IMG/VR virus record: IMGVR_UViG_3300005529_000006
Coordinates: 1 to 64,000 of that record
Direction: 5' to 3' (one strand)
From: a virus
DNA: 64,000 bases
Below the pieces are notes generated by a model. It searched no databases. It saw only the letters and a list, made by a program, of their open reading frames with translations, and had not been told where the DNA came from. This document shows, piece by piece, positions 3,470-61,733 of this stretch. Position numbers and translations under genes: made by a program. Numbering within the stretch: the stretch's first letter is position 1; every line of letters begins with the position of its first letter.

Positions 3470-3488
3470 GAACCCCTTTTTAGGTAGG
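3470..3488 (+). repeat. 19-bp motif copy A (GAACCCCTTTTTAGGTAGG)
   Basis: Exact copy. On the minus strand it reads CCTACC-TAA-AAAGGGGTTC, with the TAA being the stop of 3480..3785; 13 nt upstream of the 3457 start. Confidence 0.8.
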
Positions 3489-4129: not shown

Positions 4130-4456
4130 CTAACTTCTTCCTGCACTGGTTTCGCCTGAAGTCGTACTCTCTTTGCCTGAGGAGTTTGCTTCTCTGTCCC
4201 ATTGCTTTCCGATTTCTTGAATCTCTGCAATCGCGCCCCAAGGGATGGTAATGTCATCAATGGACGCACGGGAGTGCCCAATGGAAGTGGTGAGCACAAT
4301 GCCTTCTTTATTGGTCTGCACCACGTAACCGATGGACTGGATTTTCGCACAACCCCTCTGGAGCGTATCGTCGTATGTCCATCCAAACATGCTCTTGGAG
4401 TCATACCACCTGACTTGTACTGCCTTCCCAAAGGGATACTTTCTTGCCTTCGTCAT
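4130..4456 (-). CDS. hypothetical protein (108 aa)
   Basis: ORF preceded by AAGGAG-like RBS, a hairpin and a motif copy. Confidence 0.45.
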   Translation of the reverse strand: MTKARKYPFGKAVQVRWYDSKSMFGWTYDDTLQRGCAKIQSIGYVVQTNKEGIVLTTSIGHSRASIDDITIPWGAIAEIQEIGKQWDREANSSGKESTTSGETSAGRS

Positions 4457-4479
4457 CCGTCTCCTTATTAGATGAAACA

Positions 4480-4503
4480 GGGGGAGGTTTTATTTCCTCC
4501 CCC
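4480..4503 (-). terminator. GC-rich hairpin (GGGGGAGG-N8-CCTCCCCC) between two minus-strand genes
   Basis: Perfect 8-bp stem read directly; a weak U-tract follows on the minus strand. Possible attenuator or terminator. Confidence 0.35.
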
Positions 4504-4521: not shown

Positions 4522-4540
4522 CCTACCTAAAAAGGGGTTC
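4522..4540 (-). repeat. 19-bp motif copy B (reads CCTACCTAAAAAGGGGTTC on plus)
   Basis: Exact copy; overlaps the TGA stop of 4539..4862. Confidence 0.8.
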
Positions 4541-5350: not shown

Positions 5351-5561
5351 AATCTTGGTAATACTGACAATGATTGTTCCCTTCCGCGTCCAGTCCACCT
5401 CTTTCATTGAACCCGAAGTGTTCACATTCCTCCGGGATGAACTGTTCTCCAGTAGCTTGCAACCACACTTCGTTCATGACCACACCTAGGTGATGCTCCG
5501 TCCAAGAGTGGCCGCAAACACATATGCCCGAACATTCCGGCCCACTGTATCTAGGATTCAC
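5319..5561 (-). CDS. Cys/His-rich small protein, candidate anti-sigma or zinc-binding partner of the sigma factor
   Basis: Its start overlaps the sigma gene end by 11 nt; motif CSGICVCGHSWTEHH. Confidence 0.45.
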   Translation of the reverse strand: MNPRYSGPECSGICVCGHSWTEHHLGVVMNEVWLQATGEQFIPEECEHFGFNERGGLDAEGNNHCQYYQDSGTSCPSGKS

Positions 5562-6078
5562 GTCCCCTCCTCATCTTTTCCGCAATATCAAACCACTTCT
5601 TACACGCCCCACCCACAGTGATCCCCAACCTCTCTCCGATCTCCTCATGCGTGAGCCCTTCCAATCTCATCCTCACCACCAACTTCTCCTCATCATCCAA
5701 GACCTCCATTGCCTGCTCCAACTCCGCCTTTGCAAGCATGGCTCGGCCTTGTCTTTCCTCATCTCCTAATGTCTCCTCCAACGTGTCCACGGATATCTCA
5801 GGGTGCGTGATCTTCTCCCTCAAAGAGAGATTGCACATTTGCGTCACAATCGCCTGGAACCACGTACTAAACAGGCTCTCTCCCCTGAACGTATGGGCCT
5901 TATCAATTGCCTTCCACACGGCATCGGCCACAATATCCGGCCTATACTCCCCCAACTTCAACCAACAAACCGCGAACGCATGTCTGCGGAGGAGAGGAAT
6001 CAGCAAGTCCAACGCCGCTCGTTTCTCCTCCTCAGTCTGCGCACTCTGCCATAACGCGAACGCCTCATTCTCCTTCAT
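5551..6078 (-). CDS. ECF-type sigma-70 family RNA polymerase sigma factor
   Basis: Region 2 (DAVWKAIDKAHTFRGESLFSTWFQAIVTQMCNLSLRE) and region 4 HTH (LEGLTHEEIGERLGITVGGACKKWFDIAEKMR); 175 aa. Confidence 0.75.
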   Translation of the reverse strand: MKENEAFALWQSAQTEEEKRAALDLLIPLLRRHAFAVCWLKLGEYRPDIVADAVWKAIDKAHTFRGESLFSTWFQAIVTQMCNLSLREKITHPEISVDTLEETLGDEERQGRAMLAKAELEQAMEVLDDEEKLVVRMRLEGLTHEEIGERLGITVGGACKKWFDIAEKMRRGRES

Positions 6079-8149: not shown

Positions 8150-8727
8150 GACTTCCTCCGTTTGCAGTTGCCATCTTCGTCGAAATGATCTGTTAGATCG
8201 GCGTTAAGCCACCGGTCGCCTTTGCGCCAAAAGGCTCCGGAGCAGTAGCCGCAGTTAGTAGGCCAATAGCCCTTCTTCACCAGCGCCCCCGCAGGAATAT
8301 AACAATCGGGTTCGCCTTCGCTTGGTGCCCAATTATGGTGTTCCCCCCAAGACTTCCCGCAGTTCGCACAAGGCTCCTTCGAGTTCCTGTCATCAAACGT
8401 TGCCCCACAGACCATACATCCCATCCCATCACATACACATGGTTTGTAAATGACTATGGGCTCGAAAGAACAGCCGACCCCTCCTTTTGTTGTATGCCTA
8501 CCTGCATGTTTCCCACACTTCTTACAACGCGCACTGTATGGATAACCGTAGCTGCCAACAGTGAGAGGATCGCCGGAGGGATACTCTTTCCTGTATCCCT
8601 CCGTATCCAGCACAACCACTTCCCCCTCACTTGTTGTCCAGGTCTCAGCTACGTCCCCTAAAAACCGGGGTGAGTCAAATACCCCTTGCCTCCAGGACAC
8701 TTCATGGCCTCTGAACTCCCCGCCCAA
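8146..8727 (-). CDS. Cys-rich protein with repeated CxxCG..W.EHH zinc-binding units
   Basis: CKKCGKHAGRH, CANCGKSWGEHHNW, CGYCSGAFWRKG; sits between the AAA and VWA genes. Confidence 0.45.
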   Translation of the reverse strand: MGGEFRGHEVSWRQGVFDSPRFLGDVAETWTTSEGEVVVLDTEGYRKEYPSGDPLTVGSYGYPYSARCKKCGKHAGRHTTKGGVGCSFEPIVIYKPCVCDGMGCMVCGATFDDRNSKEPCANCGKSWGEHHNWAPSEGEPDCYIPAGALVKKGYWPTNCGYCSGAFWRKGDRWLNADLTDHFDEDGNCKRRKS

Positions 8728-9707
8728 CTATGGTCGTTGGCAGTGAGGCCACAGTTTCTACATTTCACACTTGAGTAATCATTGGGCAGATACCCTTGCT
8801 TCGAGCCCCCATCCTTTCCATGTGGCCCATTCCTATGCGGACAAGTCTGCCCAGGGCCAAACTCCGGATGAGCAAGGTGCGCTCCCTGTTGTTCCCCACA
8901 GTAATAACAGGGGCTGCTCGTATCAGGAATCTTTCCCTTATATCTCGCAGCCGTGGTCAGTACCGACAGAATCTCTTTCCCCGTCGTTCCAAACACACTC
9001 TCCGCGATCTGTGTCTCGCACAGAATCTCCGCCTGCTTGATCTTGGCGAAAGCCCGCATCCGGCGCAGCGTGGGTTTAGTAGAAAACTGCCACGGAGCAG
9101 GAGCCACGTTCTTGAAATGGTTCTTAACCGCCGCAGCTTGCGCCTCATCCAACCCGGTCAGCGCATCGGGATGAGGGTCTTTGGCAATCAAAACCGCCTC
9201 AAACCGATCAATGATGGCTTCCGGCAGACTGGCCAAGTTCGCATTAGTAGTGGCAATCACCACATACCCCTGCTTCGCCTTGACCATCTCTCCGGTGGGG
9301 AGCATAATCTGCGGAGCGTCATCCAGGAACGCATACATCAAAGACGCGATCTCACTTGGATGGTGGTCGATCTCGTCAATGAGCAGAGCCTTCCCTTCCC
9401 GGAGGGCTCTCGTTCCTGGGCCATCAACCCAAACGGTTTCCCCTTCCCGGAGCTGATACATCCCCACAATGTCCTCCACTCCCGTGCCTTCCGTCATGGT
9501 CAGACGGTAATCACTGCGAGTGACCTCTACTGCGGTGCGGCTTTTGCCCGTTCCCGGAGGGCCACAAAGCAAAATCCGGTTGCTCCCGCTATCCACCAGT
9601 GCGGGAAGGGCCTGGTACCATGCCACACTACGTGCAAACTTCGTCGCTTCGCTCATCTTCAGTAGCTCCTTCGATCTCTTCTTTTTCGTTCTCAATGACG
9701 TAGCCAT
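8658..9707 (-). CDS. MoxR/CobS-like AAA+ ATPase (AAA_5) with a Cys/His-rich C-terminal tail
   Basis: Walker A LLCGPPGTGKSRTA, Walker B LLIDEIDH, sensor ATTN, IDRF; C-terminal CYYCGEQQGAHLAH...CRNCGLTANDHSW. Confidence 0.7.
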   Translation of the reverse strand: MATSLRTKKKRSKELLKMSEATKFARSVAWYQALPALVDSGSNRILLCGPPGTGKSRTAVEVTRSDYRLTMTEGTGVEDIVGMYQLREGETVWVDGPGTRALREGKALLIDEIDHHPSEIASLMYAFLDDAPQIMLPTGEMVKAKQGYVVIATTNANLASLPEAIIDRFEAVLIAKDPHPDALTGLDEAQAAAVKNHFKNVAPAPWQFSTKPTLRRMRAFAKIKQAEILCETQIAESVFGTTGKEILSVLTTAARYKGKIPDTSSPCYYCGEQQGAHLAHPEFGPGQTCPHRNGPHGKDGGSKQGYLPNDYSSVKCRNCGLTANDHSWAGSSEAMKCPGGKGYLTHPGF

Positions 9708-18561: not shown

Positions 18562-18966
18562 CTACTTCTTGGACATCTTGGCCTTGAACGTGTTGACCTT
18601 GGCCTGCTCCTGAGGGGTCAGGTCAGTGCGCTTCGCCAGAACTTCATACTCCGCGAAGGTCAGCTCGCTGTTGTCGATGGGATTGCCCTTGGTCGCCAGC
18701 TTGTCCTGATTGGCAGCGATGAACTTGCTCACCTCAGGGGCAAACTCGATCAGCCGTTTCCACTGCTCCCCATACAGGGTCACGGGCATACGCTGTAGGC
18801 CATAAATGCTCACAGCGCCCTTCTCGCTGACCTTGCAGACCAACTTGCCCGAAGTACGGGCTGCTAACTGCGATTCCAGTTCAGCGATTCTCGCTTTCAT
18901 CTGCTCAAGTGTTTGTGACATGTTGTTTCTCCTTTCGGCCTGTCGCCGTTTGTTCGAACGGGCCAA
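18562..18966 (-). CDS. hypothetical protein, first gene of the leftward operon
   Basis: ORF abutting the control region; basic N-terminus with a coiled coil. Confidence 0.45.
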   Translation of the reverse strand: MARSNKRRQAERRNNMSQTLEQMKARIAELESQLAARTSGKLVCKVSEKGAVSIYGLQRMPVTLYGEQWKRLIEFAPEVSKFIAANQDKLATKGNPIDNSELTFAEYEVLAKRTDLTPQEQAKVNTFKAKMSKK

Positions 18967-18993
18967 ATACCCAACTTTCGATTCCGCGGCAAG

Positions 18994-19053
18994 TTGAAGA
19001 AAACAAAGGACTTAGAAAAAACCGCTCTAACTTGTTGAAAACAAAGGACTTAG
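18994..19053 (+). repeat. two direct copies of TTGnnGAAAACAAAGGACTTAG, 39 bp apart
   Basis: aagTTGaaGAAAACAAAGGACTTAG and aacTTGttGAAAACAAAGGACTTAG, read directly. Confidence 0.7.
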
Positions 19054-19476
19054 CGGCCTTGCTATTCCCCCTCAATCTCCCTGATAACGCTCATGTCAGC
19101 ATGATTTAGATAATCAGCGCACAATAAGGGGCGATGTGCTATGTCATTGGCAGGTAATGAGTTGGCATAGGTTTAAGCTGATCGCCAGGGGGGTGGCAGT
19201 TTTTAATTGGGTGGGCCCCAACGCTCCTCAAAAATATAAAAATATGCTATTAAATTGTTGATTCTGAAGGGGGGTGGGCTGTTTTCTTATGGGGTCCCCA
19301 AATATGTATTGGACTGCCTGGCCAAAAGGAGGTAAGTTGCTGGAATGCACCTCTACCGGTTCATCCAGTTTTTGCCTTATACCAGGCGGCAATATCCGGA
19401 TCTGACCTTGTGGCAGCAGGTAATCCTGACCTGGCGAGATGTTCGAAGGTTCTTATGAGGGTGTATACAGTTCTAT

Positions 19477-19495
19477 GAACCCCTTTTTGGGTAGG
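19477..19495 (+). repeat. 19-bp motif copy C (GAACCCCTTTTTgGGTAGG, 1 mismatch)
   Basis: In the control region, followed by AGGTATG. Confidence 0.65.
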
Positions 19496-19584
19496 AGGTA
19501 TGACATGTGTTTTCAATGAGATACAAGAATTTTCCTTGTAAGTCGTTGATTCTAAAGCGCAATGTCCAAATGACACTTTTCTGA

Positions 19585-19604
19585 TAAGTCCTTTGTTTTC
19601 AAGG
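19585..19604 (-). repeat. inverted third copy of the GAAAACAAAGGACTTA element
   Basis: Plus strand reads TAAGTCCTTTGTTTTCAAGG, which is the reverse complement of the 18994 and 19033 copies. Confidence 0.65.
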
Positions 19605-19724
19605 GTCCTCATGTTTCTCACTACCCCGCCGATCACCAGCCCCAGGACCCAAAATCCTTTAGAATATTCACCCCTTTAGTGAGAAACATTTACTATATTG
19701 ATAAATAAGGGTTTATGCATTTTG

Positions 19725-19748
19725 AGTGTCACGACGTTTTTCGTGACA
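19725..19748. promoter_or_regulatory. perfect palindrome GTGTCACG-N8-CGTGACAC (operator-like)
   Basis: Read directly; 8-bp arms. Confidence 0.4.
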
Positions 19749-19836
19749 CTTCCTGCAAGTGGCGTGTTTTCAGCTATTTACCCCTATCTATAACGTACAC
19801 CTGGAGTTGCGCTGATACACAATTTGGACACATCCT

Positions 19837-19855
19837 CCTACCTAAAAAGGGGTTT
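19837..19855 (-). repeat. 19-bp motif copy D (CCTACCTAAAAAGGGGTTt, near-exact)
   Basis: About 72 nt upstream of the first rightward gene. Confidence 0.65.
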
Positions 19856-19927
19856 CGAAGCACCTGTATAAAATATTTTTATGTTGTTGGAAATAAAAAT
19901 ACTTCCGGGGGGATCTAATTCAATGAA

Positions 19928-20401
19928 GTGCCGAGATCTAAGTTCTCTGAGAACATAACTCCTGATTGGTTTCGGGAAGCGGCCCGGTTGATGGCCAGGA
20001 ATGACATCAGCCTCAAGCAAGCCGTGGTCGAACTCCAGCGTGAGTTAGCCCCTGAAGAATGCGAGCGCCTGGCTCGCCGGGATGACTTCAAGCAGATTCT
20101 CCAGCAGGAGAAGAATCGCTACCGCTCTGAAGTCGCCAACAGTCCCGACCGCACCAAAGCCACCAAGATCGGCATTCTCCAACTGGCAGTTGAAAAACTT
20201 CTGGCCGAAGGCGAGTGGGAAAAAGCTGCCAAAATCACCATGGAACAAGCGAAGCTCGAAGGGGAGCTGAACGCTGACTCCAATATCAACATCTTCGCTG
20301 GCCTGACCGCCAAAGATATCGCCTCCGAACGCGAAAAAGTCCTCAAACAGATTGAAGCTGACCGATCCGACCGAGATACTCCAGAAATTCTCCCCAACTG
20401 A
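19928..20401 (+). CDS. putative terminase small subunit
   Basis: First gene of the late operon, immediately upstream of and overlapping the TerL gene; 157 aa, helical and charged. GTG start is uncertain. Confidence 0.4.
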   Translation: MPRSKFSENITPDWFREAARLMARNDISLKQAVVELQRELAPEECERLARRDDFKQILQQEKNRYRSEVANSPDRTKATKIGILQLAVEKLLAEGEWEKAAKITMEQAKLEGELNADSNINIFAGLTAKDIASEREKVLKQIEADRSDRDTPEILPN

Positions 20402-29378: not shown

Positions 29379-29572
29379 TGGCCGGTAGAATCTCCATCTC
29401 CTCCCCTGACGGGAAGGACTTCTTCAACGTCCTCACCGTCCAAGGCGTTGTCTTGTTAGTGTGGAACGACGCCCTCTTCTACATGTCCATGGAAGAAGCA
29501 GGCAGACTCCTCAATATGCTTTCCCAGGCAGTAACAGGAGCAGCCCCCCAAATAACTATCCCCCCTACCTAA
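29378..29572 (+). CDS. hypothetical protein (65 aa; trimmed from ORF 29243..29572)
   Basis: TAATG junction; the N-terminal part of the longer ORF looks like out-of-frame Arg/Pro-rich translation. Confidence 0.3.
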   Translation: MAGRISISSPDGKDFFNVLTVQGVVLLVWNDALFYMSMEEAGRLLNMLSQAVTGAAPQITIPPT

Positions 29573-29582
29573 AAAGGGGTTC
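29564..29582 (-). repeat. 19-bp motif copy E (CCTACC-TAA-AAAGGGGTTC, followed directly by ATG)
   Basis: Exact; the TAA is the stop of 29378..29572; ATG of a 38-aa ORF at 29583. Confidence 0.8.
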
Positions 29583-43259: not shown

Positions 43260-43277
43260 ACCCCTTTTTAGGTAGGA
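43259..43277 (+). repeat. 19-bp motif copy F (aAACCCCTTTTTAGGTAGG; ATG 1 nt after)
   Basis: Fills the whole intergenic spacer between 43259 and 43278. Confidence 0.75.
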
Positions 43278-50292: not shown

Positions 50293-53200
50293 TGCCACAG
50301 AATCCTGACATCAGATCGGTCCTCGATCCTCTTCAGGTGGATAAGAGTCTCAAGAAAACCGCTTGGGACTCCTACTACGGAGCGAACAGCCCCGATGAAT
50401 TCCGCCAGAAGTTCGACTCCCTCGCTATCCCAAAGGAAGCTAAAAAGCAACTTTGGGATATGAAGTTTGGAGGGAAACCGAAAGTAAACTTCCCGATCCC
50501 ACAGCCCTTTGAAACTGGGCCACAGCTTCCGGAGAAACCGGAGCAGCCTGGAATTGTCTCCCAGGTCCTAAGTGCGGCCTCGAATATCCCCTTGCTGTCT
50601 GACTTGGGGATACCTTCGAGTCGTGGACCGATGCCTGTCAAGGGTGCAGGTGTAGCCGATGTGACTGGAGCCCGAGGTTATCCCGAGATGTATCAGGGAG
50701 CCAAGGAGTTCTATAACGCGGACCAATACGCAGATAAACGTCGCGCACAATACCAGGGAGCAGCTCGTACCATTGGTGGCGCGATGGAAGCGGCCAAGCC
50801 ACTGATGTATCTCTCCGCAGCGGAAGCCCCCATCGACTTCGCCGCAGGTCTTGCATTGAGTCAAGCAGGAAGTTATGGGGCAGAACATATCTCCCGAAAC
50901 TACTTCAAGGCTTCCCCTGAAGCGCAGCAGCTCTGGGGACAGCTAGGCGGATTCCTGCCCATGGCAGGAGGCATGGCACGGGGATCTATCCGTGGCTACA
51001 AAGAGCTTCGTTCCAATTTGGTTTCGAAACTAGCCGATGACATGTTGAAGCAAGGAGCTACGCCAGAGATGGCACAGCAAGCTGCTGAACATGCGGTGCA
51101 GATGTATGAAGCCACCGGGGACGCGCAACGCATTGGGGCGGAGAACGCTGAACCTCCGAGTGCTACAAAGGTTGCCAAGATCCAAGGAAGGAAGATCGCA
51201 GGTGGAGTGGTTGGAGCCGCACAGCACGCAGCTCCCCTGCCTGAAGAACAAAAGGCAACTCCTATTCCGGAGTTCCAGCAAGCCCCGGTCCCGACGGACA
51301 AGATCGCAACTCCCACGGAGACGTTCGCCCAACCGGAGACACCTAAGACAACTCCCGCCCGTGAGATACTGTCGAGTAGTCCATCTTCTGAGTCTGCCTT
51401 TATGGAGCCTCCGAAAGTGGAGGCTGCTCAGCCGACCGACGTGCGATCTGAGACTCGCCATAACATAACTACCGACGCTGTAACTGGAGAGCAGAAGGTT
51501 GCCCGCAAGGAACTTCCTCCTGCCCAGGAGCGGGCGCAGCAGTACGTCAACGACTATCAGAACTTCGACAAGGAGCAGCAACAGTTAGAGCGCTCCCTCA
51601 AGAACGGCAGACTAAAGAATGCCGACGCCACGCGCCAGCGAGTCGAACTCCTCAAGCAACTCAAGGACAAAGCCTGGAGGAACTATGTCCAGTACGCAGA
51701 CAGGGGAGATGTAGTAGATACCCTGAAGGGCCTGGCCCCTCAGCTCAAGTCTCTTGCCGATCAAAGCTCTCTCCTCCAGAGCATCGGCAAGCATCTCGCC
51801 GACGGCAGCTACACCCTCTACAAAGCAACTGCGGACAAGTCCAACAAGACTTATGTTCCGGATGACCTGATTCAGTCTGCCCTGGGCACAGGCCGCACGA
51901 ACGTAGTGCCTCCCGTCCCTAAGGACTTCGTTGACTCCTTACCCGAAGGCTCCTACAAAGAACAGCTCAAAGCTCTCAATCCTCGCAGCCAGGAAATCCG
52001 TCAAGCCTGGGTATCGAAGTATCTTCTCCAGACCTCCGGAGAAGTCCGCAACCAATACGAGGCGCTTAATGACCGCTTCAACGTCGCACTCAAAGTAAAA
52101 GGCGTGCGACCGGAGGAGTGGCTGCCCCTCACTGCCGAGAGCAAACCCGAACCCAAAGGCCTCCCCGCTTATCGCCCGGAGACTCCTGCCCCCGCTGTCA
52201 ACAAGCCTTCTGCCTCGGCTACCGAGCGCAACTCGATCATCGAGTACTACCAGAAGCAACTGGCTGCCGCTAAGACCGACAAGGATCGGCAGATGTGGCA
52301 GAAGTCAATCGAGAAAGAGCAGAAGAAACTCGGGAAAGTCCCTCCCACAGAGGTCCCCAAGACCGAACCTCCCCTACCTAAAAAGGGGTTCAGCGAACAG
52401 GAGTTGCCTGATGAGATGCGCTCCTTCCTCTCTGCCAATGCCACCATGGGCATGAGAGCGGACGGAGACATAGGCGCACTCCGTCAACTTGCACAGTTCG
52501 GCGACCCCAAAGTTTCTAAACGCGCCCGCCTCTATCTCAAGGCCCTAGGTCATGAAGTCCCCAAAGTTTCCAAAGCCAGCAAAGTGGAAAGTGCCCCATC
52601 AACCTCCGAGGGCACCCCTGCTGAAAAGTCTCTCGAAGCCGCCCAGAGCGCCCAGGCCGCAGGAAAACCCCTTTCGCCTCTCTCGCGGAAAGAAGTTCTA
52701 GATGTAGTTGACAAAGAAATAGCTAAAGCAGGTTTCGACAAAGCCATCGTCAAAGACATTCGCAAGCTGGTGCTCGACACCTACGCCCGTGAAGTGGCGG
52801 CAGGTAACGAGAACGCCCTTGAAGATGTCAAGGGGGTGATCCAATCTTTTGCGAACCAGAAGGGGGTATTCTCCTTCCGTCGCATACCGGGTACGCCGCA
52901 AGGCCCGTCCGTTTTCAGCAGACTCGCTGACACTCTAGACCGAACTCTCAACAAATCTGAACAACGCCAGCTCGCAGAGAACGTTCTCCGTGAAGGCACA
53001 GGCTCGCTCGCCAGGGACAGAGAAAAGGTTTTCCATCGCCTGGAGGATCACCTTGACCGCCACGACGGGGACAATGTAATGGAGTTCCGCGAGTTCATGG
53101 ACGCCGGTGAAGGCAAGCCAGGGGCACGCTTCCTCAATCCCCAAGACCAAGCCATCGCCAACGACCTGCACCAGATGTTCCAAGAACGTTGGGCAAAGCT

Positions 53201-55310
53201 CCAGCAGATGGGCATTGTTGATCCCACCAACGCGGGAATCCAAAACTATCTCAAGCACCTTTGGGAGCGCCCCAACCGCGCCATCGACAGGAACCTCCTG
53301 TTCGGTAAGCGCCCGATTGCAGGCCCAGGAACCTTTCTCAAAGAACGCTTCTACGACTACATGTCAGACGGTCTCGACGCAGGACTAAAGCCTGTCACCT
53401 ACAACCCCATCAAGATGCAGCTCATGGGGATGTTCGAGATCGACCGCTTCATCCGTGCACATGAGATGAAGGACGACCTTATGGCCTCCCGCACCTCGAC
53501 AGGTGCCAGGTTGATGAAGTGGTATAAGCTCGGGGAGTCAAAGCCTCCGGGCTGGCAGAAGATTGATGACCGCCTATTTCAACCGAAGTTCATGACCAAG
53601 AGCGGCCTCACCGAGGCTGGAGCATACTGGGCGCATCCTGACGTAGCCAAGGTCTTCAATAACTACCTCTCCACCGGATTGCAAAACGAAGCCTGGTATC
53701 GAGGGGCCCGACACTTTGGCAACTTCCTCAACCGGATGCAGCTCTCGACTTCTGCCTTCCACGCCACCTTCGAAGTCCTGAACTCAACGATCTCTGAAGT
53801 GGCTCTGGGTTTCCAGAAAGCATTTAACAACCGCGACTTCGGTGCCGCAGCCAAACATATCTTCCGTTCTCCTGTGGCTGCCGCTCATTACTGGAAGCTC
53901 GGCAAGATGATCGAAGCTGAATACCTGACACCTTCGAACAATCTCCAATTGGCTTCTCTCGCTAAGTCCCTGGAGATCGCAGGCGGCAGGATTGGCCTCG
54001 ACCCGCTCTACACTAACAACGCAGTCGAAGCTTTCCATCGTGCAGTGACCGACCGTTCTCTAAAAGCCCTGCCCCGTGCAGTAGATGCATTGGTGGAGAA
54101 ATCTTCTAACTGGCTCATGAAGAACATGGTCCCCCGAATCAAGATTGGGATGTTTGCGGAGATGGCCGACCATCGCCTCAACGAACTCATGAACGCCGGA
54201 GCCTCCCGCGAAACCATCTCGACTGAACTTGGAAAGCTCTGGGACTCTGTGGACAACCGCGCCGGACAGCTTGTCTATGACAACCTCTTCTGGAGCAAAA
54301 CGCGCAAAGACCTGGGCTTCTTAGTTATGCGTTCTCAAGGTTGGAACCTTGGTACGTTACGAGAACTCGGGGGAGGAATGGTCGATCTCGGCAAGATGTT
54401 CGGAGGGAACACCCGCTTGACCGAACGCACAGCCTACATCATGGCGATGACTGCAACCATGGGATCTCTGGGTGCGATCTACCACTACATGGAAACAGGT
54501 CAAGCACCCCGGAAGCCCGCAGACTATTTCTTCCCTGGCAAAGAGGGCCAGAAGAAATCCTTCCCCTCTTATATCCGTGACGTAGGTGCGCTGCTGCACG
54601 CCTTGAGTAGCCCCAACAAGCTTCAGGGTGTAGGCACGATTGCTGCCCACAAACTCAACCCAGAGTGGCAGCTCCTCTACGACCTCTACACTAACCACGA
54701 CTTCTACGACACACAGATCTATGACCCCGGAGATCCGGCTACCCGTCAAGTCTGGGATGTCGCAAAGTACATCGGGAAGCAGGCAACTCCTATCTCTATC
54801 CAATCTGCCATGGAACGGCACCGTACAGGTGAATCGTGGGGTAGCTCGGTGGGTGGCTCCCTCATGGGTATCACTCCCGCGCCCAAGTACATCGGTCAAT
54901 CCCCTGCGGAAGAGATGGCCTTCGAACTTGCCAAGCGCAAGATGGAATCCGGCCCACACTCCAAAGACGAGTTCGCCCGTGAGCAGGCTTTCCAGGAAGT
55001 ACGCCGCACTCTCGCACAGCACGGCAAGCTCGACTTCAACCGTGTTCGCCAGCTTGTAGCCGATGGCAAGGTCACCGCAGAACAGGTAGACCGTATCTAC
55101 GATGAGCAAGGCATGGGTGCCTTGGAGCGCCACGTCGCCAGATTAGACAACCTCAAAGACATGTTCACTATCTGGGATCTGGCCGACCCCAACGAAAAAG
55201 TCCAACTCCGCTCTCGTATTCTGGATGTTTACGATAACGATATCGGTCGCCTGTCTCAGGACCAGCGTGAGTACTACACTCGCAGAATTCGCAGTGAAGT
55301 GCTACACTAG
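50292..55310 (+). CDS. giant internal virion / ejection-type protein (1672 aa)
   Basis: Last and largest structural gene, Ala/Gln/Lys-rich; carries an in-frame motif copy (PLPKKGF). Confidence 0.6.
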   Translation: MPQNPDIRSVLDPLQVDKSLKKTAWDSYYGANSPDEFRQKFDSLAIPKEAKKQLWDMKFGGKPKVNFPIPQPFETGPQLPEKPEQPGIVSQVLSAASNIPLLSDLGIPSSRGPMPVKGAGVADVTGARGYPEMYQGAKEFYNADQYADKRRAQYQGAARTIGGAMEAAKPLMYLSAAEAPIDFAAGLALSQAGSYGAEHISRNYFKASPEAQQLWGQLGGFLPMAGGMARGSIRGYKELRSNLVSKLADDMLKQGATPEMAQQAAEHAVQMYEATGDAQRIGAENAEPPSATKVAKIQGRKIAGGVVGAAQHAAPLPEEQKATPIPEFQQAPVPTDKIATPTETFAQPETPKTTPAREILSSSPSSESAFMEPPKVEAAQPTDVRSETRHNITTDAVTGEQKVARKELPPAQERAQQYVNDYQNFDKEQQQLERSLKNGRLKNADATRQRVELLKQLKDKAWRNYVQYADRGDVVDTLKGLAPQLKSLADQSSLLQSIGKHLADGSYTLYKATADKSNKTYVPDDLIQSALGTGRTNVVPPVPKDFVDSLPEGSYKEQLKALNPRSQEIRQAWVSKYLLQTSGEVRNQYEALNDRFNVALKVKGVRPEEWLPLTAESKPEPKGLPAYRPETPAPAVNKPSASATERNSIIEYYQKQLAAAKTDKDRQMWQKSIEKEQKKLGKVPPTEVPKTEPPLPKKGFSEQELPDEMRSFLSANATMGMRADGDIGALRQLAQFGDPKVSKRARLYLKALGHEVPKVSKASKVESAPSTSEGTPAEKSLEAAQSAQAAGKPLSPLSRKEVLDVVDKEIAKAGFDKAIVKDIRKLVLDTYAREVAAGNENALEDVKGVIQSFANQKGVFSFRRIPGTPQGPSVFSRLADTLDRTLNKSEQRQLAENVLREGTGSLARDREKVFHRLEDHLDRHDGDNVMEFREFMDAGEGKPGARFLNPQDQAIANDLHQMFQERWAKLQQMGIVDPTNAGIQNYLKHLWERPNRAIDRNLLFGKRPIAGPGTFLKERFYDYMSDGLDAGLKPVTYNPIKMQLMGMFEIDRFIRAHEMKDDLMASRTSTGARLMKWYKLGESKPPGWQKIDDRLFQPKFMTKSGLTEAGAYWAHPDVAKVFNNYLSTGLQNEAWYRGARHFGNFLNRMQLSTSAFHATFEVLNSTISEVALGFQKAFNNRDFGAAAKHIFRSPVAAAHYWKLGKMIEAEYLTPSNNLQLASLAKSLEIAGGRIGLDPLYTNNAVEAFHRAVTDRSLKALPRAVDALVEKSSNWLMKNMVPRIKIGMFAEMADHRLNELMNAGASRETISTELGKLWDSVDNRAGQLVYDNLFWSKTRKDLGFLVMRSQGWNLGTLRELGGGMVDLGKMFGGNTRLTERTAYIMAMTATMGSLGAIYHYMETGQAPRKPADYFFPGKEGQKKSFPSYIRDVGALLHALSSPNKLQGVGTIAAHKLNPEWQLLYDLYTNHDFYDTQIYDPGDPATRQVWDVAKYIGKQATPISIQSAMERHRTGESWGSSVGGSLMGITPAPKYIGQSPAEEMAFELAKRKMESGPHSKDEFAREQAFQEVRRTLAQHGKLDFNRVRQLVADGKVTAEQVDRIYDEQGMGALERHVARLDNLKDMFTIWDLADPNEKVQLRSRILDVYDNDIGRLSQDQREYYTRRIRSEVLH
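52373..52391 (-). repeat. 19-bp motif copy G inside the 1672-aa gene (CCTACCTAAAAAGGGGTTC, in frame as PLPKKGF)
   Basis: Exact copy. Confidence 0.8.
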
Positions 55311-55358
55311 AAATAAGATCTGGTGTTTTCAGATCTAATAAGACGAATAACGCAAAGA

Positions 55359-55381
55359 GGGGTTCTCCGGAACCCCTTTTT
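55359..55381 (+). terminator. rho-independent terminator (GGGGTTC-tccg-GAACCCC + TTTTT)
   Basis: Its downstream arm and T-tract are the first 12 nt of motif copy H. Confidence 0.65.
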
Positions 55382-55388
55382 AGGTAGG
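55370..55388 (+). repeat. 19-bp motif copy H (GAACCCCTTTTTAGGTAGG; ATG of integrase 1 nt after)
   Basis: Exact copy. Confidence 0.8.
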
Positions 55389-55389
55389 T

Positions 55390-56259
55390 ATGAATCTTCG
55401 ATTTTGGGCAGGCAAATATGAAGCCTCCCTCGCCACGACAGTACGCAGAGACACCCGCGAACGCTACGGCATAGCCCTCAACCACATCCTGGAATACCTT
55501 GGCCCCCTCCATCCCAAGGATGTCTTCAAGATCGACGCCAAGAACTACATGGCCCACCGGCTCTCTAAGGGCCTAGCTCCCAACACGGTTCGCCAGGAGA
55601 TCTTGGTAGGCTGTGCTTTCTACAACTGGCTCATCGAAAACGAAGTCGTAGAGTACGGCCACAATCCGTTCTCCCGTGTCAAGAAGCCTCGCGCCCCTGA
55701 ACCACTACGTCGGGCACTCTCTAAAGACACTCTCGCCAAACTGTGGGCTGCTGCGGAGAAGAAAAGTGATCTGGTGATGTTGTCTGTGGCATTGCTTACT
55801 CCCCTTAACGCCAAGACAATTGCCATGCTGCAAAAGAGCAACTTCGATTTCGAGCGCAAGCAACTGGTGTGCGAGAGGAGCAAGACAGGTGTGGCCCTGA
55901 TTCTTCCTGTGGCCGATGAACTCCTGGAGCTGGTAGCTTCTCTCCCCGAGGGTCCCCTCTTCCCCAAGGTAATCCTTGACCGCAGGCCCGGCTCTGTGCT
56001 CTCCCGCCGCTTTGCGGTCCTAGCAAAAAAAGCCCTGGGGTTTAACCCAGGGCTACATGCGCTGCGCCATACCTTTGCAACCGACGCACTTCAAAGCGGA
56101 GTTGACATCCGGACCGTTCAAGCACTACTCGGCCATAAGTCAATAATGACGACCGCTCGTTATCTTGCGCCAGCGGACACTGAATCGGTCAGAGGGTTCT
56201 TGGAGACTAGGTTGCTGAAGCTTCAATCACCTTTGTCTCCGCCTCCTGAATCCCCGTAG
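55390..56259 (+). CDS. tyrosine recombinase, Xer-like (289 aa)
   Basis: C-terminal catalytic HALRHTFATDAL...LLGHKSIMTTARYLA (R-H-R-Y). Confidence 0.75.
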   Translation: MNLRFWAGKYEASLATTVRRDTRERYGIALNHILEYLGPLHPKDVFKIDAKNYMAHRLSKGLAPNTVRQEILVGCAFYNWLIENEVVEYGHNPFSRVKKPRAPEPLRRALSKDTLAKLWAAAEKKSDLVMLSVALLTPLNAKTIAMLQKSNFDFERKQLVCERSKTGVALILPVADELLELVASLPEGPLFPKVILDRRPGSVLSRRFAVLAKKALGFNPGLHALRHTFATDALQSGVDIRTVQALLGHKSIMTTARYLAPADTESVRGFLETRLLKLQSPLSPPPESP

Positions 56260-56755: not shown

Positions 56756-56758
56756 TTT

Positions 56759-56798
56759 GGGCACAACTGGGCACAAAACCTGGACTATTTTGTGCCCT
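56759..56798. promoter_or_regulatory. operator-like site: GGGCACAA direct pair, then a 10-10-10 palindrome GGGCACAAAA-N10-TTTTGTGCCC
   Basis: Read directly; same core as the 5095-5350 cluster. Confidence 0.55.
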
Positions 56799-56889: not shown

Positions 56890-58086
56890 CTATACACCTG
56901 CAACAACTTCTGCCTCAACCGTGGGCACAAGTGGGCACAAAATCGTGCCCATCTGATCCGCTACTTCCCGGTCTTTCTCCCGAATAGCGTGCGCATAAAC
57001 CCGAAGCGTGAGGCTTGGATCGGCGTGGCCGAGCCTGGTTGCCGCCGTTCGGATATCGACTCCTCGGGAAACAAGGAGAGTTGCGTTGGCGTGCCGGAAG
57101 GCATGAAGGCCCCCTGGCTCAATCCCGAGTCGTTCGAGGAGGGGTTGGAGCTTTTGGAATACGATGTCATGGCCATCAAGAGGGGTGCCGTTGCGGGTGC
57201 TAAACACGAATCGCAAAGGGTCTCCCCCTCCAGCACAATGACGTTCAAGGGCATCAGCCAGAGCTTTGGATACCGCGAGCGTTCGTAGTGCGCTCGTCGA
57301 TTTCGGGGTCTGTACTCGACCCTTCCATACACTCTGCCGCACTTGCACTGTATGGTGTCGGGTGTCAACATCACACACCCTGAGTCCAGTGATTTCACCT
57401 GCACGTAGTCCTGTTTCAGCAGCCAGCCAATAGATAGTCCTATATGGTTCTTCGGCTGCGGCGATTATTCTTTGGATCTCCTCCAGGGAGAAGCACCGTC
57501 TCTTGGGTGGCTTCTTCCTTGGGAGCACAATGCCATCACAGGCGTTGTGAGTTACAGTTCCCCAAGATTTGGCGGTCTTCCATATGAGTCTGAAGGTGCC
57601 GATGATATTCCTGACGGTCTTGGGATTTAAGGTGAGGCCCGCGATGAATCTTTGAAGATGCACGGGTGCAATATCCCCCATGTCCATCTCCCCAAAATAC
57701 GGAATAAGATACCTGTTTATGTGGTTCTTCTCCATGCTCTGAGTGGACAACTTGTGGGAGGGCATCACGGTGTCTCGCCAGTTGGTGGCAAATTCCCCAA
57801 AAGACACCTTGACCCTCGGACGATAATCCAGGGCATTTACTTCACCCAGGAGTCGGTCGAGGGCCCGTTGAGCTAAACGTTTAGTAGGGAGTTCCTGTAG
57901 AGTCCCCAATACCTTCGACTTGTGAACTCTCACAATCGCAGAAGTTGAGGCGCTTGCCACAGCTCCAGCAGAAGTCGTAGGTTCCCCATACGAAGGCTTG
58001 ACATCCTCCCTCCACCTGGCGACCCACACCTTCTTCTTGTTTCCCCTGAGAAACAACCTTCCTTTCTGATACCTTCTCCGAGCCAT
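56890..58086 (-). CDS. int: tyrosine integrase (phage type, about 398 aa from the MARRRYQKG start)
   Basis: N-terminal arm/SAM-like region, catalytic C-terminus ...LHAFRHANATLL...GHADPSLTLRVYAH. ORF as listed begins at 58143. Confidence 0.75.
   Translation of the reverse strand: MARRRYQKGRLFLRGNKKKVWVARWREDVKPSYGEPTTSAGAVASASTSAIVRVHKSKVLGTLQELPTKRLAQRALDRLLGEVNALDYRPRVKVSFGEFATNWRDTVMPSHKLSTQSMEKNHINRYLIPYFGEMDMGDIAPVHLQRFIAGLTLNPKTVRNIIGTFRLIWKTAKSWGTVTHNACDGIVLPRKKPPKRRCFSLEEIQRIIAAAEEPYRTIYWLAAETGLRAGEITGLRVCDVDTRHHTVQVRQSVWKGRVQTPKSTSALRTLAVSKALADALERHCAGGGDPLRFVFSTRNGTPLDGHDIVFQKLQPLLERLGIEPGGLHAFRHANATLLVSRGVDIRTAATRLGHADPSLTLRVYAHAIREKDREVADQMGTILCPLVPTVEAEVVAGV
56921..56950. repeat. 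GTGGGCACAA x2 plus an inverted GTGCCC half-site, overlapping the last codons of the integrase
   Basis: Read directly; candidate arm-type/attP-associated sites. Confidence 0.5.
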
Positions 58087-58468
58087 TTTCTCCTGGCCCG
58101 TTGATTCCGGTACCATCATACAAGACACCTGTTGCTCTGTCATCTAGCTCCGGATGTGATACGCTATACTCCAATAGACTAAGGAGGCCCCAACACGCAT
58201 GAGAAAGATGTGGCAATCCAGACTCTTCATCCAGTTCTTCTCCGGACCACCACTTCCAGAGGTGCCGCATGACTGCCGCGAATATGCGACTCCATTTCAA
58301 ACCCTTGCGCCAGTTATTGTCCTCATACTTCCCTGCGCCGAACGTGTACACTCGGCCTAGTTCCCACAACGGATAGGCTGGTATGAGGTCCAGCCTATTC
58401 TTCCCTCCATCGTCCTTCGCGCCTTCCTTAAGCTTACTTGTTTGCTGCAATTTCTCTTGCGAACTCAT
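57881..58468 (-). CDS. dATP/dGTP diphosphohydrolase-domain protein
   Basis: DDGGKNRLDLIP...FGAGKYEDNNWRKGLKWSRIFAAVMRHLWKWWSGEELDEESGLPHLSHA, the hallmark of the phage dGTP-diphosphohydrolase N-domain (recollection). Start trimmed to Met-42; about 200 nt overlap with the integrase start is unresolved. Confidence 0.6.
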   Translation of the reverse strand: MSSQEKLQQTSKLKEGAKDDGGKNRLDLIPAYPLWELGRVYTFGAGKYEDNNWRKGLKWSRIFAAVMRHLWKWWSGEELDEESGLPHLSHACWGLLSLLEYSVSHPELDDRATGVLYDGTGINGPGENGSEKVSERKVVSQGKQEEGVGRQVEGGCQAFVWGTYDFCWSCGKRLNFCDCESSQVEGIGDSTGTPY

Positions 58469-59961: not shown

Positions 59962-60219
59962 CTACTGAGTCAGTTCCACTTTTCCCGAGAACATGGTGTT
60001 CATTGCCTCCTCTGCCATTTGAAAGAGCAGGTGAACCGTGTCGGGTGCGTCGAAGGGGCCTGAGGCTAAGACGCTGGCTTGATAGGCTTTGTTGTCACCT
60101 TTGAGGGTGACGGTATAGGTAATCTCGTATGACCCGCCCTTGCCAGACTTCACATCCACAATCAGGCGGTCAGCATCGAACGCGGTGACACTACTTGCTT
60201 GTACGTTTGTATTTTCCAT
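59962..60219 (-). CDS. hypothetical protein (85 aa)
   Basis: ORF. Confidence 0.4.
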   Translation of the reverse strand: MENTNVQASSVTAFDADRLIVDVKSGKGGSYEITYTVTLKGDNKAYQASVLASGPFDAPDTVHLLFQMAEEAMNTMFSGKVELTQ

Positions 60220-61405
60220 CTATAACTGCTACGTCCTTTGACTGCAATAAACTGAACAACAACTTGTCCGTATCTTGACTGGAGCAGTAGTTCCTCATCG
60301 CCCGCTTGATTGCGGTATCTGAGAGCATGTCGTCCCCAATCACTTCCAACACCTTGGCTAACATCTTCCCCTGTGGGCTCATCGGCACCACAACCTCCCC
60401 GAGTTTCTTTTGAGAGTACTCATAGAGCGCGATTGCGTTCTTCACATCCTCAGCCGTGATGTGATAACGATTACAGGAGAGGGCGAGCAGGAGCGACAGA
60501 CGGAGGACATGTGCCCCCGCTCGCGCAGCGAAGGGAGATAGCACCCCCAGATCGGGCATGAACATCTGATACCAAAGCCCGTAGGTGTCACTCGCTTCGT
60601 AGTCTAGGAAGTCCACTCTCCCTGCCGAAACATCGGTCAGGCCCTTAAAGGCGTCCATCAAGTCCGCTCGCTCCCGGAGGAGTTGCGCCCTCTGGGTCTT
60701 ACTCATCACCCTGGAGGGGTCAGGAACTCTTTGGCGCTTGTGATCTTCCTTCACAATAAAGAATCGTGGCAGGAATCCGCCTGCGGCAGCGGTGGACGGC
60801 AACTGATCTTGGAGCCACTCTTTGGTACTGCCGCCTATGATGGTCACGGAAGGTTCTTCTACAGTCTGGATACTTCCGGCCTTGGTGCGGATACTGGTAG
60901 GAGCGTAATCAAGAAGGTCAGTAATATAAGGGATCATCCCTTCCTGATAACGCTCCTTGGAGAAGAAGTTGGCCAACTCAGAAGCCACCACAATGGCATG
61001 TCCCCCACATGCAATCAGATCTTCGTGGAGCTTCTCTTTGGTTGCCTTCCCTGAAATAACTTCGGGCTTGCGGTGGGAGGGAAGTTCACCGATAAGCTGC
61101 AACCCAATGTCCCGGATTGCGGTGGACTTCCCAATCCCACTAGGCCCAATCAGCAGCAAGTTCATCATCGGAAATACACGATGCACGTCCTGGTCGAAGT
61201 AGCACTTCCTGCCAATGGCTGCTCCGAACATGGACATTGCGCTGAATAGCAAGTAGCTGGTGGGGGGTTCCGCCAGGGGATAGCAAGCTAGATACTTTCT
61301 AAACCAGCTATCTTTTGGCAGATTTTTTAGCACTGAGTCTTTGCTGTTGGGCTCGACATACCTCATCGAGCCACTTGCCCCACCCGATTTCTCTGATACG
61401 ATCAC
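60191..61405 (-). CDS. P-loop NTPase, putative SF3/D5-like replicative helicase
   Basis: Walker A LLLIGPSGIGKST and Walker B-like HAIVVASE; in the replication module. Family assignment is tentative. Confidence 0.45.
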   Translation of the reverse strand: MIVSEKSGGASGSMRYVEPNSKDSVLKNLPKDSWFRKYLACYPLAEPPTSYLLFSAMSMFGAAIGRKCYFDQDVHRVFPMMNLLLIGPSGIGKSTAIRDIGLQLIGELPSHRKPEVISGKATKEKLHEDLIACGGHAIVVASELANFFSKERYQEGMIPYITDLLDYAPTSIRTKAGSIQTVEEPSVTIIGGSTKEWLQDQLPSTAAAGGFLPRFFIVKEDHKRQRVPDPSRVMSKTQRAQLLRERADLMDAFKGLTDVSAGRVDFLDYEASDTYGLWYQMFMPDLGVLSPFAARAGAHVLRLSLLLALSCNRYHITAEDVKNAIALYEYSQKKLGEVVVPMSPQGKMLAKVLEVIGDDMLSDTAIKRAMRNYCSSQDTDKLLFSLLQSKDVAVIDGKYKRTSK

Positions 61406-61674: not shown

Positions 61675-61714
61675 CGAGATATTAGATGGATCACGCTGCG
61701 ACTTTATTTCCCAT

Positions 61715-61733
61715 GAACCCCTTTTTAGGTAGG
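61715..61733 (+). repeat. 19-bp motif copy I (GAACCCCTTTTTAGGTAGG; on the gene strand CCTACCTAAAAAGGGGTTC-ATG)
   Basis: Exact copy; sits 2 nt after the stop of 61736..62137. Confidence 0.8.

Follow-up and report, generated by a model that had tools for sequence, protein, structure and literature searches.

The gap between two divergent gene blocks

The stretch of DNA analysed here, referred to as the window, is the first 64,000 nucleotides of IMG/VR virus record IMGVR_UViG_3300005529_000006 (source contig 67,226 bp) and covers most of one phage genome. The phage is temperate, uncultured and ~67 kb in size, its temperate character being seen in the integrase gene and attP-like array that it carries. 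Its genes form two blocks that diverge from a single intergenic region, the gap. Leftward genes extend from 18921 to position 1 and from ~64 kb to 56.9 kb, and encode a family A DNA polymerase, a primase-like protein, a Sak4-like annealing protein, endonuclease VII, an extracytoplasmic function (ECF)-type sigma factor and a tyrosine integrase. Rightward genes extend from 19928 to ~56.3 kb, and encode a putative small terminase (TerS), a large terminase (TerL, PF03237), a portal of SU10/P22 type, the major head protein, four giant virion proteins and a second tyrosine recombinase. Judged from sequence, there is about an even chance that the gap is the main transcription-control hub of the phage, where host-factor sites (the repeated motif M1, below) would be combined with a late promoter read by a phage sigma factor. 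The gap and the genes at its edges are as follows.

18922..19927, no strand: whole divergent intergenic region, from the first leftward early gene to terS, delimited by the sequence, the list of open reading frames (ORFs) and relatives
18562..18921, minus strand: first leftward (early) gene, 119-aa product; the first gene left of the gap in relatives too
19928..20401, plus strand: putative small terminase gene terS, the first rightward gene, with start codon GTG, directly upstream of the TerL gene

A sequence-only reading of this DNA had proposed a divergent control region starting at 18967. The divergent, gene-free stretch is real, with leftward genes from 18921, rightward genes from 19928 and an equivalent gap in every relative examined, but its start lies at 18922, as the first leftward gene begins with an ATG at 18921, preceded by AAGGAG. 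Relatives were drawn from IMG/VR, JGI metagenomes and ENA/Logan assemblies, and are labelled here, together with other M1-bearing contigs, by L and a number. All the related contigs that were examined have their leftward genes and terS/terL set apart by a gap of 0.5-1.2 kb; in several it contains a small leftward gene and then a terminator-like hairpin, both of which the window lacks. The terS candidate has matches in 23 related loci at 30-55% identity (tblastn), and its product has no family or PDB match of its own. TerL has more than 600 metagenome homologues, many of them on contigs of 65-70 kb. Its identity to cultured phages is at most 27%, and the family has no cultured relative there; among 185,579 species genomes nothing is more than 33% identical to TerL and no close prophage is present, and a nucleotide match is absent from 50,697 cultured-phage records.

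The 91-aa ORF inside the gap (19361-19636, minus strand) is probably non-coding, as had been supposed: it has no PHROG match and no tblastn match in 24 related loci, and it runs over motif copies. The other gap ORFs likewise have no PHROG match and no homologue in those loci, and protein-coding potential in the gap was rejected on the failure to find homologues. A known structured RNA was also rejected, with only a chance-level Rfam match (E = 0.38), no tRNA in the gap and no consensus pairing in its conserved block boxC (below). GC skew is negative over almost the whole window irrespective of the direction of transcription, and cumulative skew falls steadily with no inflection.

M1, a site shared with related and unrelated phages

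The sequence-only reading described two repeat families in the gap. All the repeats that it listed are present, within 1-3 bases of where it placed them and above chance expectation, but they belong to one motif rather than two. When their flanks are aligned, its 22-mer and 15-mer are variants of a single ~27-bp site, M1, with five copies. Two of these match exactly the published consensus of integration host factor (IHF).

S1, 18990..19015, plus strand: CAAGTTGAAGAAAACAAAGGACTTAG, with a perfect 3' half and AAGA in place of the TTGA core
S2, 19027..19053, plus strand: CTAACTTGTTGAAAACAAAGGACTTAG, full consensus form
S3, 19251..19269, plus strand: TAAATTGTTGATTCTGAAG, its reverse complement giving the exact IHF consensus WATCAANNNNTTR; a G-rich module follows
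S4, 19538..19557, plus strand: GTAAGTCGTTGATTCTAAAG, an exact IHF-consensus match, forming a convergent pair with S5
S5, 19584..19605, minus strand: CCCTTGAAAACAAAGGACTTAT on the minus strand, the inverted third copy of the earlier reading

The M1 consensus is YAAGTnnTTGAWWMYAAAGGACTTAG, also written YAAsTyG-YTGAWWMYAAAG-GACTTAG. It is asymmetric and only quasi-palindromic, with outer arms (CTAAGT ... ACTTAG) that form inverted repeats around an asymmetric centre. The shared part of the 22-mers, GAAAACAAAGGACTTAG, is exact at 18999-19015 and 19037-19053 (plus strand) and has one mismatch at 19584-19600 (minus strand), with no further copies in the 64 kb at up to three mismatches (0.16 expected by chance); a perfect inverted match of 18 nt joins 19035-19052 and 19585-19602. 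The proposed second family is represented by TTGTTGATTCTGAAG at 19255-19269 and a copy with two mismatches at 19543-19557. The 22-mers do not bracket the region, as had been claimed, since their copies occupy only the left two thirds of the gap. When the whole window is scanned, the long form of M1 has matches only inside the gap.

Conservation of the repeats in related genomes, on which the earlier reading had made itself depend, is clear. At least 13 relatives have M1 in the equivalent gap, one to four copies each, in either orientation. Across 17 genomes its core has 26 matches in 15.9 kb of gap versus 10 in 248 kb of flanking sequence, a 40-fold enrichment. Two simple identities for M1 were rejected. 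A hairpin of the outer arms (TAAGT/ACTTA) was rejected by eye, as either arm is conserved alone and compensatory changes are absent among family instances. A promoter of sigma-70, sigma-32, ECF or Bacteroidetes type was rejected because no -10 box is conserved at a fixed distance downstream and the orientation to genes varies.

M1 is not private to this genome, but is present in more than 80 unrelated viral contigs, mostly between genes. When 2.9 million viral contigs were scanned for exact matches to TGAWWMYAAAGGACTTAG, it was found in at least 119 other viral loci; the figures that follow are among the matches listed. In 83 of the 106 distinct contexts M1 falls outside any long ORF, and some of the remainder are coincidences in conserved coding sequence. 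Intergenic copies outside the family also carry the GTAAGT-nn-TTGA arm, which was absent from the search pattern. Their neighbours include large terminases of three families, SNF2 helicases, DNA polymerase, primase and RecA, and a few of the loci are more distant members of the window phage's own family. M1 is often paired in unrelated contigs, either directly, ~40 nt apart (L128, L213, L148, L227), or inverted around a GC-rich hairpin spacer of 27-33 nt (L122, L154, L157, L181, L195). L195 has three such inverted-pair units ~1.1 kb apart, with a TGGCAC..TTGC motif ahead of each. The motif string was not found in papers of the literature searched, where a string search returned unrelated primer sequences only, and a 31-nt similarity in Brevundimonas phages turned out to be a different hairpin.

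M1 is constant in phages whose packaging and replication genes are unrelated, and the simplest explanation is that it is the target of a host factor or a generic host-dependent signal. Its left half is the reverse complement of the 13-bp IHF consensus WATCAANNNNTTR (as quoted in PMC8942017 and PMC10380432), which positions 7-19 of the M1 family profile follow. S3 (19251-19263) and S4 (19539-19551) are the only exact matches to this consensus in the 64 kb; S2 has one mismatch. The IHF-like half points to an architectural protein. M1 also has conserved sequence beyond the IHF consensus and its A/T-rich element, as the right half AAAGGACTTAG and the YAAGT arm are kept as specific sequence rather than as A/T richness, and this extra conserved half shows that IHF is not the whole story.

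Known IHF-assisted regions include the H sites of lambda attP, I1 of lambda cosB and promoters of Pu/nifH type. M1 resembles these in the asymmetric, exact consensus matches of S3 and S4, in its scatter in either orientation through a regulatory region, in its place just upstream of -24/-12 promoters in relatives, and in a sequence held constant in divergent phages, as expected for a host factor. It differs in its second, more strongly conserved half and conserved arm. It also differs in position: in the classic arrangement an IHF site separates the promoter from a remote enhancer, whereas in relatives M1 abuts the -24 box at 3-6 bp.

The motifs in question in relatives are of sigma-54 type (-24/-12) and are aimed at the early leftward genes. 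They were scored against TGGCAC-N5-TTGCW, with invariant GG and GC 10 nt apart and 12 consensus positions. The best examples are as follows.

L006:3492-3507, minus strand: sigma-54-type motif TGGCACGGTGTTTGCA, 12/12 consensus positions
L031:8165-8180, minus strand: sigma-54-type motif, 10/12
L033:3144-3159, minus strand: sigma-54-type motif, 10/12
L009:3364-3379, minus strand: sigma-54-type motif, 10/12
L039:2759-2774, minus strand: sigma-54-type motif, 10/12

Lower scores are seen beside M1 in L007 and L030 (9/12) and in L008 (8/12). In the unrelated loci L120, L146, L230 and L231, a sigma-54-type motif lies at a fixed 4 bp from M1, and in L147 (the same contig as L006) at 5 bp. A motif of this type is present within 60 nt in 8 of the 106 listed M1 contexts, compared with 1.9% of random positions. 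In L146 and L128 the gene downstream of M1 and the sigma-54-type promoter is a homologue of the window's first leftward gene. To our knowledge, sigma-54-type promoters ahead of phage early genes have rarely been reported. A phage-encoded enhancer-binding protein was sought and rejected: the only candidate, the AAA+ protein at 8658-9707, is AAA_5/MoxR-like with a faint Sigma54_activat match, and lacks GAFTGA.

From these sequence comparisons it is possible, if doubtful, that M1 is a hitherto undescribed regulatory element of many unrelated uncultured phages, acting as the promoter-proximal partner of host sigma-54 promoters. If so, whole groups of soil phages would launch their early genes via host sigma-54, a dedicated architectural or activator protein would recognise the 27-bp quasi-palindrome, and the window phage would have kept the M1 sites while replacing the -24/-12 promoter.

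Two other functions for M1 can be weighed against its distribution. One involves the conserved and G-rich blocks that lie between its copies.

19171..19250, plus strand: boxC, a conserved DNA block with GTTTAAGCT, then GGGGGGTGG, GGGCCCC and an A/T tract; alignable in nine genomes, with GTTTA-GCT invariant
19269..19299, plus strand: second G-rich module GGGGGGTGGGC...GGGGTCCCC, immediately following S3; arranged in this way in L008 and L007 too

Across the family boxC reads GTTTARGCT ... GRGGGTGG ... GGGnCCC ... AAAATTTT, and RNAalifold predicts no consensus pairs for the nine-genome block. The G runs noted earlier are present at 19188-19196 and 19269-19277. They belong to tandem modules, 19188-19221 (GGGGGGTGGC..GGGTGGGCCCC) and 19269-19299, with four G tracts each, which are duplicated in L008 too and could form G-quadruplexes on the plus strand.

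As the gap lies directly upstream of terS and terL, it might be a packaging site (cos or pac), with M1 and the boxC/G-rich dyad serving for small-terminase assembly and cutting, assisted by an IHF-like bend. The lambda cos region (cosQ-cosN-cosB) closely precedes the small-terminase gene Nu1; its cosB, with the layout R3-I1-R2-R1, adjoins cosN and spans ~120 bp. The gap is like it in its position and in having at least three copies of one motif, direct and inverted, together with IHF-type sites, here the IHF-consensus halves of M1. The G-rich runs and GGGnCCC dyad of boxC are kept as DNA rather than as RNA structure, and a large terminase (of three families) lies within 3.5 kb of M1 in 7 of 37 unrelated loci with large ORFs nearby. 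However, the M1 sites are spread over 600 bp rather than ~120 bp. In relatives M1 and boxC stay on the early-gene side, parted from terS by the inserted small gene and terminator-like hairpin, which put terS 0.7-1.3 kb off. M1 is unchanged while TerS diverges to 30-55% identity, is common to phages with unrelated terminases, and also lies beside helicase, polymerase and primase genes in unrelated phages. No contig ends were found in the gap, and cohesive ends are not evidenced for the window phage, known here from sequence alone, as they are for lambda. A packaging site thus appears unlikely. Contig starts were also considered as genome ends and rejected. L009:1-45 and L033:1-130 (contigs of ~66-68 kb) start in a tandem repeat (actccc.../gacccc... 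units) at homologous positions ~4.4 kb before TerL, probably a repeat-induced assembly break inside the gene for a repetitive peptide.

The other function is a replication origin, also suggested by the sequence-only reading, with M1 as initiator-binding repeats, unwinding at the A/T tracts 19229-19257 and 19868-19905, and IHF-like bending. G+C is lower in the gap than anywhere else in the window (0.436 versus ~0.52). The gap is also alone among nearby 1-kb bins in having positive GC skew, combines repeated motifs of protein-binding type with A/T-rich tracts, and has a DNA fold more stable than that of shuffled sequence (z = -3.5). Against this, the five sites are mixed in orientation and irregularly spaced (38, 224, 287 and ~46 bp), unlike iterons, and the cumulative skew has no turning point. 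The primase/helicase and polymerase genes lie at 59-64 kb, 40 kb from the gap, with no initiator gene nearby. M1 is moreover found in many unrelated phages with different replication modules, and abuts promoters in relatives. Positive evidence for an origin is thus missing, and we consider one here very unlikely.

An attP site in the gap was rejected because a typical array of arm repeats adjoins the integrase gene instead. GGGCACAAAA-type repeats flank the 3' end of int (56890-58143), at 56.75-56.95 kb, as tandem pairs at 56758-56778 and 56922-56942 with an inverted copy at 56788-56797, and M1 is absent there.

The rightward promoter candidate, a phage sigma factor and operator-like repeats

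The transcription-control reading draws on a second element, a promoter candidate immediately before terS that the earlier reading had missed, and on a phage gene that may encode its reader.

19889..19918, plus strand: candidate promoter of ECF-sigma type, GGAAAT-N18-ATCTAA, A/T-rich on its upstream side and 9 nt ahead of the GTG of terS
4468..4497, minus strand: second motif copy, GGAAAT-N18-ATCTAA, upstream of the gene at 4130-4456
55309..55338, plus strand: third motif copy, AGAAAT-N18-ATCTAA, upstream of the second tyrosine-recombinase gene (55390-56259)
61682..61711, minus strand: fourth motif copy, upstream of the primase-like gene (60191-61405)
5551..6078, minus strand: phage-encoded ECF-type sigma factor of 175 aa (PHROG sigma factor; Pfam; PDB)

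GAAAT-N18-ATCTAA has four exact copies in the window, with 0.56 expected and none added when one mismatch is allowed, and all four are intergenic, in the sense orientation and upstream of genes. The element before terS is conserved. A (G/A)TCTAA box is present there in the window, as well as in 13 of the 21 relatives that were compared, with an AAY-type box 18 nt upstream and A/T-rich sequence beyond, and TCTAA is invariant in an alignment of eight genomes. The -35 boxes of relatives are TGTAAC, AGTAAC, GCGAAC or TGTAAT, some having GTAAC, with GTCTAA as the -10 box. TGTAAY-N18-GTCTAA is found twice in the gap of relatives, in divergent orientation, once before the small leftward gene and once before terS. 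In L016 (positions 1-400), a relative with an 80%-identical TerL, the GTAATCTAAT box and terS are separated by ~350 nt that are rich in hairpins and apparently do not code for protein; this segment may be an inserted structured RNA or intron-like element.

The E. coli sigma-E promoter is of the type GGAACTT-N16-TCTGA/GTC, and phage sigma factors that redirect the host polymerase to late genes are known from T4 (gp55), SPO1 (gp28/gp34) and phiEco32 (gp36). ECF promoters in the literature pair a G-rich/AAC -35 box with a short -10 box of CGT or GTC type (PMC1540707, PMC5758882); the window's boxes are similar in style without being canonical. The window motif is like promoters of ECF (group IV) sigma factors in having a -35 box with G and AA and a short (G/A)TCTAA -10 box, in its very low degeneracy, and in always lying in sense upstream of genes. 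Further points of likeness are the sigma-E-like factor encoded by the phage and the place of the motif ahead of the packaging and structural operon. The 5551-6078 product matches Sigma70_r4 and Sigma70_r4_2 of Pfam above the cut-off, whereas Sigma70_ECF (20.3 bits against a cut-off of 21.1) and region 2 fall just below; its closest solved relatives are E. coli sigma-E (1or7, 6jbq) and ECF sigma factors of AlgU type. This factor is thus a candidate reader of the GGAAAT-N18-ATCTAA promoters, and 19889-19918 would be the promoter of the packaging and structural operon. An anti-sigma factor was not identified in the phage.

Several features of the gap may be operators, among them an inverted repeat, missed by the earlier reading, that joins 19478-19498 and 19834-19854 (21 nt, 95% complementary) and consists of two copies of an 18-mer, CCTACCTAAAAAGGGGTT. 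The 18-mer is dispersed through the window in nine copies, on both strands, eight perfect and one with a single mismatch, with none at two to four mismatches. The two gap copies are given first, followed by the positions of the 16-mer core CCCCTTTTTAGGTAGG (the 18-mer on the other strand).

19478..19498, minus strand: copy A, CCTACCCAAAAAGGGGTT, one mismatch, then leftward CTGTATACA (19470-19462)
19834..19854, plus strand: copy B, CCTACCTAAAAAGGGGTT, then rightward CTGTATAAA (19864-19872); 35 nt ahead of the -35 box in the candidate promoter of terS
3473-3488, plus strand: core
4522-4537, minus strand: core
19480-19495, plus strand: core
19837-19852, minus strand: core
29564-29579, minus strand: core
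43261-43276, plus strand: core
52373-52388, minus strand: core, inside a 1672-aa ORF
55373-55388, plus strand: core
61718-61733, plus strand: core

Apart from the copy at 52373, all copies (8/9) lie between genes. Several take in the stop codon of the upstream gene and stop 0-2 nt short of the following ATG, and either end could serve as a Shine-Dalgarno sequence. Each of the four ECF-type promoters has an 18-mer copy within 60 nt, and CTGTATA(C/A)A follows each gap copy after 12-14 nt. Relatives have versions of their own, cctcgcaTAGAACGGGGTtag and cagccTAGAAGGGGGTttgg (versions in L032, L033, L002, L035 and L009). Our leading guess from these patterns is that the 18-mer is the binding site of a phage-specific regulator. 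A single-subunit RNA polymerase as its reader was rejected, as no such gene was found and the giant virion proteins have no informative family matches.

Two side observations concern copies outside the gap. A perfect hairpin, GGGGGAGG-aaataaaa-CCTCCCCC, at 4476-4499 (minus strand) overlaps the -35 box of the 4468-4497 promoter copy, just downstream of an 18-mer copy, and could be a terminator or attenuator. The two tyrosine-recombinase genes are convergent (55390-56259, plus strand; 56890-58143, minus strand), and the gene for the smaller product (289 aa) is preceded by a promoter-motif copy of ECF type and, immediately ahead of the ATG, by an 18-mer.

The closest parallels to the 18-mer are the stoperators of phage L5 and the start-associated sequences of cluster K mycobacteriophages (PMC3203893). 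Like these, it is short, asymmetric and near-invariant, lies in short intergenic spaces genome-wide, often takes in the upstream stop codon a few bases from the next start with a Shine-Dalgarno-like end, and has related versions in related phages. Unlike them, it occurs in both orientations with either end usable as a ribosome-binding site, and in both early and late blocks, four copies accompanying ECF-type promoters. The likeness raises the alternative of an immunity region, in which the 18-mer would be a repressor site and its gap copies the operators of divergent promoters, with TATACA (19467-19462) and TATAAA (19867-19872) as -10-like boxes. The temperate character of the phage, the all-or-none and largely intergenic distribution of the 18-mer, its association with the four promoters, the CTGTATA(C/A)A that follows both gap copies, and the versions in relatives, as expected for immunity specificity, are all in keeping with this, as is the precedent of the stoperators. 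However, a repressor gene was not identified, the genes flanking the gap being without family matches. In relatives with a dispersed motif of their own, the gap contains no copy of it. The orientation of the 18-mer relative to transcription is mixed (6/9 in one sense), which is not the case for L5 stoperators, and its distance of 0-2 nt from start codons, with Shine-Dalgarno ends, is closer to the start-associated sequences of cluster K (PMC3203893). An immunity region is clearly unlikely on this evidence.

The inverted repeat formed by the two gap copies could instead be taken as a pair of recombination sites at which a 335-bp segment flips an internal promoter between early and late genes. 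The size is typical of invertons, the repeats are 95% complementary, a weak leftward sigma-70-like site lies inside the segment (19576-19549), and the phage has a second, small tyrosine recombinase (55390-56259). Yet the pair is not unique: the 18-mer is present seven more times, on both strands, so that a recombinase acting there would scramble or delete the genome, and the recombinase gene is 36 kb away. An invertible switch is extremely improbable.

Two further symmetrical elements lie between the 18-mer copies.

19725..19750, no strand: operator-like palindrome AGTGTCACGA (19725-19734)-N6-TCGTGACACT (19741-19750)
19611-19623 / 19677-19689, no strand: inverted repeat with perfect 13-bp arms, ATGTTTCTCACTA / TAGTGAGAAACAT, 53 nt apart, missed by the earlier reading

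The palindrome had been reported as ending at 19748 with an N8 spacer; it is real but slightly larger, with 10-nt arms and a 6-nt spacer. Palindromes in the gap are genome-specific (GTGTAAAnTTTACAC; GCGTCTCAA..GTGAGAC; GTGTCACG..CGTGACAC in the window), and variation of this kind between genomes is shown by immunity-type operators. Inverted repeats equivalent to 19611-19689 are found in L008, L033, L002, L035 and L004, with arms that are genome-specific yet complementary and 32-53 bp between them. The palindrome, the inverted repeat and the two 18-mer copies may tentatively be seen as operators for phage-specific regulators.

The gap as a possible transcription-control hub

These elements would fit together as follows. 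The early and replication genes would leave the gap leftward, and the packaging and structural operon rightward. M1 would be recognised by a conserved protein, DNA-bending or regulatory and most likely an IHF-like host factor, that shapes the promoter DNA. M1 is assigned to such a factor because it is constant in divergent phages, occurs in either orientation, has a left half of IHF consensus and adjoins the sigma-54-type promoters of relatives. The ECF sigma factor, made from the leftward block, would direct host RNA polymerase to GGAAAT-N18-ATCTAA before terS, which would act as the late or packaging promoter, and rightward transcription would be switched on.

A number of observations weigh against this interpretation. 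On the rightward side, the window's -35 box is GGAAAT and lacks the canonical AAC (although some relatives have GTAAC or GCGAAC), its -10 box has ATC rather than GTC or CGT, and its boxes are ~2 nt further apart than those of E. coli sigma-E promoters. The motif has only four copies in the window, and the mixed set of genes behind them (terS, recombinase, primase-like, small ORF) is no obvious late regulon. On the leftward side, the window phage has no promoter identifiable by consensus. No sigma-54 match of 9/12 or better is present in its gap, where the best (8/12, at 19760, plus strand) is away from M1 and faces right, and beside S1, at the homologous position, CGGAATCGAAAGTTGG has lost the invariant GC. 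The gap has no sigma-70 match of 10/12 or better either, a promoter scan being at chance level. As for M1 itself, S1 and S5 fit the IHF consensus poorly when read from sequence, the strongly conserved right half is outside that consensus, most copies in unrelated phages are not beside a sigma-54 motif, and the assignment to IHF and sigma-54 presupposes a host that has these factors.

The sequence-only reading had offered the gap as a lysis/lysogeny switch or an early/late switch. A junction of early and late promoters is plausible because of the conserved promoter-like element before terS and the sigma-54-type leftward promoters of relatives, but no leftward promoter is identified in this phage. 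A lysis/lysogeny switch of lambda type has a divergent repressor gene pair. Such a pair is absent here, the integrase and attP-like array are 37 kb away, and sequence searches of Pfam, PHROG and PDB found no helix-turn-helix repressor signature in the 119-aa protein or the terS product, although one palindrome is present. The general label of a divergent control region stands; a lysis/lysogeny switch gains no positive support. To the earlier picture are added the union of the two repeat families, a proposed link of M1 to the sigma-54-type promoters of relatives, and a candidate ECF-type late promoter with a phage sigma factor.

A divergent control region between early genes and a packaging operon is ordinary phage anatomy. 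What the gap provides is a list of parts, all of them candidates (a late promoter with its sigma factor, the early promoters of relatives, and operators), from which the gene-expression programme of a large uncultured family may be read. Should M1 prove to mark the site of a host factor, or an early promoter linked to sigma-54, it could be used as a signature of host clade or regulation in viromes.

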